Both the position numbers and the translations under genes were made by a program. 64,000 bases of DNA from the NCBI GenBank assembly GCA_030424595.1, contig JAUHWG010000011.1, positions 193,130-257,129 on the forward strand, written 5' to 3'. Below the pieces are notes generated by a model, which saw nothing but the letters and a program-made list of their open reading frames with translations, had not been told where the DNA came from and searched no databases. Numbering within the stretch: position 1 is the first letter of the stretch; every line of letters begins with the position of its first letter. This document shows positions 42,412 through 46,334 of this stretch, in pieces. This DNA comes from Polyangia bacterium. Its GTDB lineage: Bacteria > Myxococcota_A > Polyangia > Nannocystales > Nannocystaceae.

Positions 42412-44271
<1,860 letters not shown>

Positions 44272-44567
44272 GGGGGCCAGCCGCCGCAACTTTCCCCGCC
44301 TGCGCCCGCGATGCAAGGGCTCTTCGAAGATTTGCTGGGCCCGCATCGGCGGAGGCACCCACGACCGCGGCGGCCCCGACCGAGCGACCTGCGTCCCGGC
44401 CGCTCCCCTACGAGAAGACCGGCGCAGCGTTCGCGGGCGGAGGCGAATGCCGAGGCGCGCGCCGCGATCGTCGAGCTCGTCGAGTCCGTAGCTCGGTCCC
44501 TGGCGCCGCGGAGCGACGAGCGCCGACGAGGGCTGAGGCCGCGTCCTCTTCCCGCGTGATGCGGCTC

Positions 44568-44774
44568 CTAGGCGGCTGAGAGGGCTTCATCGTCGACTCC
44601 TTCGTCACCGTCGGCGGGCTTGTCGGTCTTGGGTCGGCGCTCCTTGGTCCCCGGGACCGGCGGCCGCTCGGACTCTGGCGGGCTGGTTTCAGCGGAGTTG
44701 GGCAGGTCTGGATCGTCGGGCGGAGGGACGATCTTCGAGGACCCTCGCTCGAGGCGAAGCTTGGGCTTTTTCAT
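44568..44774 (-). CDS. Hypothetical small basic/disordered protein (68 aa) directly downstream of a LexA-box-containing promoter
   Basis: ATG at 44774 ([21 protein letters not shown]...). Promoter-like TTGACA-17-GACGAT immediately upstream. Composition is low-complexity, so coding status is uncertain. Confidence 0.35.
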
Positions 44775-44786
44775 GATTTCGATCGT

Positions 44787-44806
44787 CACTGAACGCGCGT
44801 TCAGTG
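44787..44806 (-). promoter_or_regulatory. Candidate LexA (SOS) box of the Myxococcus/Deltaproteobacteria type (CTRHAMRYBYGTTCAGS). A 20-bp perfect palindrome CACTGAACGCGCGTTCAGTG, plus an extra half-site GTGTTCAGTG at 44826-44835.
   Basis: CTGAACGCGCGTTCAGT matches 16/17 consensus positions. It lies exactly in the 17-bp spacer between TTGACA and the -10-like hexamer, 13 bp upstream of the ATG. Confidence 0.5.
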
Positions 44807-45299
44807 TCAATCGATGACTGGTGAAGTGTTCAGTGTAGCGGCGTGATTCTCCCCCAGATCGACAAAATTCCGCGCGACTACGCCCGTGGCGAGCGGCCTC
44901 GCGCACGCGCTGAGCGGCATCGCGCTCGGGGGGTTGTGACGCCAGCGGAGGACCTCGTCATGCGGCTCCTGAGCGCTTCGCTGCCGAGGAGGAACCCCGG
45001 ACTTCGGGCGGCGAGGATACGGACCATGCGTGTGTAGTCATGGACCTGCCCAAACAGTCATATGACTGAAGAGACATCTTTAAGGGGAGTCGGTATCCGT
45101 CGTCGGCGGCTCGCGGTCGACCCATCCGGGCTGCGACAGATCCGCGGAGCGGAGCGGAGGCTGAGCGGGCGCGTCCGGGCGCGAGTCGTCTCGCCCGCGA
45201 GAGACCCAGGCCGCGAGGTGGGCTCGGCACGGTAGACCCGCCGAAGCGCGATGGTTCGACGACCTGCGGGGCGAAGCGGGGCCGTGTTGGCGATCCGCG

Positions 45300-45520
45300 C
45301 GGCGAGCGGTCGCGAGGGAAAGGGCGCCGGTCGTGGCTCGTAGAGTCAGACGGCGAGGAAGCGACGGCTCGCGGGTTGGGCACGTCTCGCGAGGGAGGTG
45401 GCTCGCGAAGCAGAGAGTGCTCGCGCTGGAGAAGCGGCTCGCGAGAACGGGGCCGCCCGTCGGAGCGAGGCCGCTAGCGAGGAGACGCCTCGCGAAGACG
45501 GGGCCTGCCCCTTGGCTGTG
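45300..45520. repeat. Degenerate repeats with core GGCTCGCGA(G/A), at least 6 copies, including a ~45-bp unit repeated twice. They sit inside a ~700-bp region (44907..45605) without a convincing ORF.
   Basis: Copies at about 45362, 45395, 45414, 45432, 45476 and 45491. Also a 12-bp perfect palindrome AGTCATATGACT at about 45067. Confidence 0.6.
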
Positions 45521-45605
45521 TCAGCCCTATCATCGGTCGATCACGAGGCGGAGAGCGCCCGCGTCGCGAGCGACGGGGAGCTGGGACGAGGGGGGGCGCC
45601 GGCGC

Positions 45606-46220
45606 CTATTCCGTGACGCGGGTCTTGAGCCCGCGGCCGATCAGGTACTGCTCGATCGACGACGACCGGGTGTTCTTCGCGTGGTAGGCCCGGCCCTCCT
45701 GGAAGACCCCGCGGAGCTCGCGGAGGATCGCCGGGAACTCGCCGCCTTGGAAGATCTTGGCGACGAAGTGGCCGCCGGGGCGCAGCGCTCGCTGGGCGAT
45801 CGCGAGGGCGCGGCGGACGAGCTCCTCGCTGCGAAACTGATCGGTGTGACGGTCGCCCGTGGTGTGCGGCGCCATGTCGCTGAGGACGACGTCGAAGGGG
45901 CTGTCCTGCGGCGGCTCCCAGTCGTCGACATCGCCGACGATGGTCTCGACGTTCGGGGGGAGGGTGATCTCGACCTCCTTGAGGTCGATGCCAAGTAGAT
46001 AGCCTTCGTCGCCGATCCGGGTCACGGTGTACTGCATCCACGAGCCCGGCCAGCAGCCGAGGTCGAGGACACGGCTGCCGCGGCGGAGGAGTCGATACTT
46101 CTGATCGATCTCCTGGAGCTTGTAGATCGCGCGACCCGCATAGCCGTCGGTCTTCGCCTGTCGGTAGGCGCGGTCGTGACGATTGGAGCGGTCGCTCAGC
46201 TTGCTGCTTCGACGGGGCAT
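45606..46220 (-). CDS. rlmE: 23S rRNA (uridine-2'-O)-methyltransferase RlmE (FtsJ)
   Basis: YRQAKTDGYAGRAIYKLQEIDQKYRLL..G..VLDLGCWPGSWMQY...DVVLSDMAP matches the FtsJ motifs (K-D-K-E context, SAM-binding DLG). Confidence 0.85.
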   Translation of the reverse strand: MPRRSSKLSDRSNRHDRAYRQAKTDGYAGRAIYKLQEIDQKYRLLRRGSRVLDLGCWPGSWMQYTVTRIGDEGYLLGIDLKEVEITLPPNVETIVGDVDDWEPPQDSPFDVVLSDMAPHTTGDRHTDQFRSEELVRRALAIAQRALRPGGHFVAKIFQGGEFPAILRELRGVFQEGRAYHAKNTRSSSIEQYLIGRGLKTRVTE

Positions 46221-46334
46221 CGGCGGCTCGCAGGGTAGCAGAGGGGCGACGGCGAGAGACGAGCCCCACAATTGAGCGAGCCGCGTCCTCCCGAGAGAGT
46301 CCGCGGCCCGTCGTTCGCAAGAACGGGGAGGGGG

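Follow-up and report, generated by a model that had tools for sequence, protein, structure and literature searches.

The locus lies in a 64-kb window (the whole stretch of DNA analysed here) with a GC content of 70%. On the minus strand the gene order is tatD, an L3 gene (46335-47021), a methyltransferase gene of the rlmE/ftsJ type (45606-46271), about 830 bp of non-coding DNA, a small ORF and typA/bipA. The ATG of typA is at 44271, 296 nt past the stop of the small ORF and in agreement with the roughly 300 bp given in an earlier note on this DNA. The TypA of the window was 100% identical to P0126, a 625-aa TypA call, and its next relatives were from a Nannocystaceae bacterium (82%), Nannocystis (70-74%) and Enhygromyxa, Plesiocystis and Pseudenhygromyxa (about 68%). 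Exact look-up of the window TypA and of the window small protein found neither on record. The L3 gene encodes a full-length ribosomal protein L3 (TIGR03625, above cutoff); it is a solitary gene flanked by tatD and rlmE and does not belong to an S10 operon. This solitary L3 arrangement was also seen in loci L001, L305 and L307. L3, rlmE and typA make up a cluster of 50S-related genes. The features between the conserved upstream block and typA are listed below.

44843-44852, minus strand: conserved upstream block GGAGAATCAC, nearly invariant in close orthologs
44818-44835, minus strand: O2, auxiliary box-like element 29 bp upstream of O1, with one arm (CACTGAAC) perfect and the other degenerate
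44805-44810, minus strand: -35 hexamer TTGACA, 6/6, last 2 nt inside the palindrome
44787-44806, minus strand: O1, LexA-type box, 20-bp perfect palindrome CACTGAACGCGCGTTCAGTG; its 17-nt core (44789-44805) is the promoter spacer
44782-44787, minus strand: -10-like hexamer GACGAT, 3/6 against TATAAT (A2, A5, T6), behind a 17-nt spacer
44568-44774, minus strand: 68-aa CDS starting 7 nt past the -10, proline-rich and predicted disordered
44289-44316, minus strand: typA promoter-like block (TTGCAT-N16-GAAAGT, then GTTGCGGCGGCTGGCCCCCATG) that hardly varies among six loci and lies outside the putative SOS unit

The window was searched for perfect palindromes with arms of at least 10 and O1 was the only one found. 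A first-order Markov simulation gave an expectation of 0.24 such palindromes per window, making O1 on its own only mildly unusual. The core of O1, CTGAACGCGCGTTCAGT, matched the M. xanthus SOS box consensus CTRHAMRYBYGTTCAGS at 16 of 17 positions, the consensus being that of M. xanthus and the host a member of the Nannocystaceae, and no other site in the window came within one mismatch of it. Both the perfect palindrome and the 16/17 match had been claimed in the earlier note and both were confirmed, the consensus being checked in PMC9705874, which covers the boxes of recA2, lexA and pafBC that were tested by gel shift and where the LexA consensus is credited to Campoy 2003 (cited here through that paper). 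Compared to the gel-shift-proven M. xanthus recA2 box (CTAAAAGCGCGTTCAGG), the O1 core shared 14 of 17 positions including the GC-rich centre, with GCGCGTTCAG as the core in common. In the M. xanthus lexA promoter the box comes immediately after a TTGACT -35 (PMC9705874); the box described here abuts its -35 just as directly, and GTTCAG is the conserved arm in both cases. Unlike the M. xanthus boxes, the putative site in the window is perfectly palindromic over 20 bp and has additional conserved flanks (CA...TG), and unlike lexA and recA2 the gene that it serves, in the family Nannocystaceae, is a small orphan rather than a repair gene. Gram-positive bacteria have GAAC-N4-GTTC as their classical LexA core.

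Read along the minus strand the promoter region consists of TTGACA, CTGAACGCGCGTTCAGT (17 nt), GACGAT, CGAAATC and then the ATG at 44774. The box exactly fills the 17-bp spacer between the two hexamers (44789-44805), as had been proposed, and the palindrome overlaps the -35 by two bases and the -10 by one. A consensus promoter scan of the window called no promoter here because the -10 matches TATAAT at only three of six positions. The ATG lies 12 nt past the palindrome, against 13 bp in the earlier note, and 7 nt past the -10, and no Shine-Dalgarno sequence was found ahead of it, and therefore the mRNA of the small gene is probably leaderless. An ATG or GTG followed the -10 at a distance of 6-8 nt, with no purine-rich stretch, in each of the 11 orthologs described next.

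Conservation of the unit was assessed in an orthologous set of 11 loci ranging from close MAGs to the cultured Nannocystis sp. ILAH1, with TypA identities from 100% down to 70%. The layout of -35, a spacer of 16-17 nt filled by the box, -10, 6-8 nt and ATG or GTG was found in all 11 loci, and the box was kept in the same register in every one of them. In ten loci the -35 kept its register and read TTGACA or TGGACA, in L306 it read TTGAGC and was one nt out, and the -10 varied between GACGAT, GACACT, GATGCT, TACCCT and ACAAAT. Within the box the right arm G(T/A/C)TCAGT was nearly invariant, the left part began with CTG in 10/11 loci and with CTGA in 9/11, and the four central bases varied (GCGC, TTGT, GCAT, ATAC, ACTC, ACTT, ATCC, GGGT). 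This asymmetry mirrors the M. xanthus consensus, in which the GTTCAG arm is conserved and the CTRHAM arm is degenerate. Box, promoter geometry and small ORF were thus all kept in related genomes, and this comparative evidence supports the main reading of the earlier note, a Myxococcus-type LexA box in a sigma-70-like promoter of a small protein gene.

The extra upstream half-site of the earlier note, said to lie 20 bp away, was located at 44826-44835 (GTGTTCAGTG), 19 nt beyond the palindrome, and was kept in 9/10 further orthologs. The distance from O2 to O1 was 29-31 bp, and 40 bp in Nannocystis ILAH1. A fuller box occupies the O2 position in L306 (CACTGAAC-ATCA-GATCAG) and L308 (CTGATCAAGAGTTCAGG), 31 and 40 bp from O1 respectively. 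We infer that O1 and O2 lie roughly on the same helix face, an arrangement that would give tight repression. Upstream of O2, GGAGAATCAC and the following CGCTACACTG were almost invariant in close orthologs, in contrast to the diverged non-coding DNA on either side. The GGAGAATCAC block may bind an activator or act as an UP-like element; a sigma-54 or second sigma-70 promoter in the GGAGAATCAC/TACACT block was rejected by eye as there was no consistent spacing.

Genome contigs were also scanned with CACTGAACNNNNGTTCAGTG, giving at least 119 matches, mostly a Nostocales repeat plus chance matches. Among the matches listed only one was informative, an imuA-imuB locus (L192) in a MAG of 73% GC. 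There CACTGAACATTAGTTCAGTG, with arms identical to those of O1, is placed 10 nt upstream of imuA (RecA fold) followed by imuB (IMS family), and the relatives of this ImuB are named Myxococcales or Myxococcota. A further match (L153) was rejected as a hairpin at a gene end. We fetched 55 metagenome loci encoding ImuB relatives, of which 45 were usable. In 33 of the 45 loci the 1.6 kb ahead of imuB contained GAAC-N4-GTTC, as compared to about one expected by chance, and the extended arms (A/C)CTGAAC-N4-GTTCAG(T/G) were found in about 30 of the 45, in Myxococcota-like loci and always directly before imuA or imuB. A PSSM was built from the imuA/imuB sites, the training sites being chosen by requiring GAAC-N4-GTTC, and used to rank sites in the 64-kb window. 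O1 ranked first (17.9 bits) and O2 second (10.4 bits). The O1 score equals that of the lowest training site, and about 16 bits was reached by 2 of 20 shuffles; O1 falls at the bottom of the training range because the centres of the imuA sites are A/T-rich and that of O1 is GCGC.

The imuA-imuB(-dnaE2) cassettes, which encode SOS mutagenesis functions, and the small gene have the extended-arm motif in their promoters in common, and differ in where it sits. In the Myxococcota-like imuA/imuB promoters the CTGAAC-N4-GTTCAG box lies over the -10 (TAATGT, TAGTGT or ATATGT), whereas the box of the small gene fills the spacer, and the product of the small gene is unrelated to DNA polymerases. Tandem boxes were seen at imuA/imuB in L250, L251 and L287, with some pairs overlapping at 17 bp apart. 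The imuA/imuB ATG follows the box/-10 by 4-7 nt in L252, L260, L265, L294, L273 and L295, and these genes are apparently leaderless. Leaderless box-controlled SOS genes appear to be common in the Myxococcota-like group, which supports the leaderless reading of the small gene. A tblastn search of all fetched loci with E. coli and B. subtilis LexA returned phage repressor-like matches only and no lexA, and a comparison of protein accession ranges matched no ImuB with any genome in which the small gene occurs.

The arms of O1 also occur in two repeats unrelated to the small-gene finding. The first is a cyanobacterial dispersed repeat, GTTTAAGACCCC-CACTGAAC-N4-GTTCAGTG-GCTCCAAGTCAG, with many copies per Nostoc or Tolypothrix genome, which accounts for loci among L131-L249 (for example L149, L165 and L202, all Nostocales). 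The second is a repeated haloarchaeal 44-mer from Natrinema and Haloterrigena (L133, L140, L147, L215, L233, L241).

The same operator could serve a different protein. O1 would then be bound by a dimeric repressor other than LexA, for example a damage or stress regulator that also controls imuA-imuB, with the same regulatory logic answering to a different signal. We regard this as unlikely: O1 is the palindromic form of a gel-shift-proven M. xanthus LexA box with the GTTCAG arm kept, it contains the Gram-positive LexA core, and no regulator gene was linked to the locus in any ortholog. What speaks for another repressor is M. xanthus imuAB, whose damage response is reported to be independent of LexA and of DdiA, with further regulators postulated (PMC12288472), and for this reason the motif at imuA elsewhere is not automatic proof of LexA binding. 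LexA is the binder that we favour for O1 in what follows.

The small ORF has a GC content of.71/.52/.77 at codon positions 1/2/3, as compared to a GC3 of about 0.88 in the neighbouring genes. A word-indexed search with its product found seven homologs of 62-79 aa, and when 1.84 billion representative proteins were searched exhaustively with a profile, only the small-protein family itself came back. In codon alignments of eight orthologs dN/dS was 0.06-0.43 in all 28 pairs, and all indels in the ORF were multiples of three. Homologs that had gone unrecognised came to light when the typA loci of distant relatives were inspected. Their genes lie immediately ahead of typA: L305, from a Nannocystaceae MAG, encodes a protein of 68 aa, L306, from a Nannocystis MAG, one of 63 aa, and the cultured Nannocystis sp. 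ILAH1 (L307, L308) one of 105 aa. All 11 proteins share the invariant core L-R...P-x-P-D-D-P-x-L-P within the N-terminal motif [KR]LR[LI]-x7-[VIL]P[PS]PDDP[DG]LP. Together the dN/dS values below 1, the in-frame indels and the invariant peptide motif indicate that the 68-aa ORF is a real protein-coding gene under purifying selection. A longer ORF of 112 aa starting at GTG 44906 was rejected; 1-nt indels among the orthologs break the frame, and these occur only upstream of the ATG, excluding the longer frame. The gene family is new but narrow, being restricted to Nannocystaceae.

The protein was described in the earlier note as small, basic and disordered. Disorder was also predicted here, AlphaFold2 giving a pTM of 0.17 and no secondary structure. 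Basic character was found at the N-terminus only: the net charge is +4 over the first 20 residues and -3 overall, with an acidic C-terminal third. Proline makes up 19% of the window protein and 19-25% across the family, and the short forms have no aromatic residues. No transmembrane or hydrophobic segment was found (maximum Kyte-Doolittle value -0.49 over 15 residues), and searches of Pfam, NCBIfam, PHROGs and PDB with the small protein gave no match. Most orthologs end in ...SAA, ...PAA or ...AAA, from which we infer a possible resemblance to ClpXP-type degrons.

The small gene and typA are close neighbours, and the promoter could in principle serve mainly typA. The transcript induced by damage would then be that of typA, with the small ORF as a cistron ahead of typA or as its leader, and the peptide would be of little importance. 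Two observations are in keeping with this: no terminator-like site was predicted on the coding strand between the two genes, and their adjacency is kept in L306 despite different upstream neighbours and the absence of rlmE there. In that locus (321-2881 of L306, Nannocystis MAG GCA_016712315.1) a 705-aa protein without a Pfam match and an M18 peptidase replace L3 and rlmE. On the other side typA is preceded by the almost invariant CTTGCATC-N14-GAAAGTTGCGGCGGCTGGCCCCCATG, and the spacer from the small-gene stop to this typA block is poorly conserved and varies from 103 to 348 nt, or from 124 to 348 nt among the six loci in which the block was compared. An almost invariant block behind a variable spacer indicates that typA has its own promoter, and the peptide itself is under purifying selection with a motif that is invariant across distant orthologs. 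We therefore disfavour the alternative raised in the earlier note, that the transcript is the 5' leader of typA, and give a promoter devoted to typA only a small chance. With no terminator predicted and the adjacency kept, transcription induced by damage may run on into typA, or the two genes may be functionally linked.

The other alternative of the earlier note was a LexA-regulated non-coding sRNA, with the ORF an accident of a 70%-GC genome. Spurious ORFs are frequent at such GC, and the GC3 of the ORF is below that of its neighbours. Against this stand the dN/dS and indel patterns and a peptide motif that persists in L306 and L308 despite strong DNA divergence, and an Rfam search of the small gene region returned no family even at E <=1, leaving an sRNA very improbable. 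That the inverted repeat is a structural hairpin (a terminator or attenuator, for which an 8-bp stem with a 4-nt loop could form) or a chance palindrome of the kind counted in the simulation can practically be dismissed, since one arm alone is changed in 7 of the 11 orthologs, in no case with compensation in the opposite arm, as expected of a protein-binding site and not of an RNA or DNA hairpin, and since the element lies between a conserved -35 and -10, upstream of the likely start site, with no T-run after the repeat. O1 is on this evidence a protein-recognised dyad.

The locus is best explained as an SOS-type transcription unit specific to Nannocystaceae. We consider it likely that the unit comprises a LexA-repressed promoter, in which O1 occludes and O2 assists, a damage-induced leaderless mRNA, and a disordered effector with an N-terminal linear motif. 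A LexA dimer on O1 would cover the whole 17-bp spacer between TTGACA and the weak GACGAT, probably assisted by the weaker O2 about three helical turns upstream, and its binding would block RNA polymerase. Upon DNA damage, RecA-stimulated self-cleavage of LexA would free the promoter. Transcription is predicted to start about 7 nt past the -10, at or beside the ATG, giving a leaderless mRNA that ribosomes would translate from its 5' AUG. The product would be a proline-rich, intrinsically disordered protein of 62-105 aa, and its invariant RLR[LI]-x7-[VIL]P[PS]PDDP[DG]LP would most likely bind a partner protein.

The predicted protein was compared to the known small SOS proteins. Like SulA, YneA, ChiZ, DivS, SidA and SosA it is small and lineage-restricted and has a promoter that is predicted to be repressed by LexA. 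In contrast to these checkpoint proteins it has no match to the SulA family or any other Pfam family, no transmembrane segment and no LysM, and it is predicted to be fully disordered and proline-rich. The type I toxins TisB/IstR and DinQ likewise have a very small ORF behind a LexA box (LexA-type in the present case), but those are hydrophobic membrane peptides with an antisense or regulatory RNA, whereas the protein described here is hydrophilic and no partner RNA was evident. DinI and YebG are small and soluble, and the acidic C-terminus of DinI has a counterpart in the acidic C-terminal third of the small protein; however, there was no similarity in Pfam or PDB, and DinI is folded while the small protein is predicted to be disordered. 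Because it has no SulA domain, transmembrane segment or hydrophobicity, the small protein falls outside all known classes of SOS division inhibitors and toxins, though it might still act like one. A soluble SOS checkpoint or translation-brake factor, with RLRL...PPPDDPDLP docking on the divisome, on the replisome, or on the ribosome and TypA, is a tentative and rather doubtful proposal for its action. If this docking were true, the persistent position next to typA, beside rlmE and L3, would be a sign that ribosome biogenesis and the response to DNA damage are linked in Nannocystaceae.

Very little is known of the SOS regulon of Myxococcota. The locus offers a conserved dual-operator promoter of the LexA type in a different myxobacterial family, and a palindromic refinement of the LexA motif of the phylum that is backed by the imuA-imuB promoters. 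The proposed regulatory mechanism is a textbook one, and the interest lies in the orphan protein and its fixed place beside typA. This conserved orphan effector is also present in cultured Nannocystis, making it directly testable.

The gap between rlmE and the small gene (44907-45605 in the window) showed no coding-like GC3 signal and gave no Rfam match, and at about 830 bp it is longer than the approximately 385 bp in L001. A few conserved islands occur in it, such as GCGCGATGCCGCTCA, which lies about 160 nt ahead of the ATG. An A/T-rich island lies in this spacer at 45020-45095 and includes a 14-bp palindrome, CAGTCATATGACTG, at 45055-45068. In relatives the A/T island contains perfect inverted repeats, GGGACATGTC-N6-GACATGTCCC, with two copies in Nannocystis ILAH1, and the copy in the window is degenerate. 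The repeats were located at 4742-4778 in L001, at about 1595-1660 in L308 and, in L009 and L305, 280-325 nt ahead of the small gene, and they could be an rlmE terminator hairpin or the site of another regulator.
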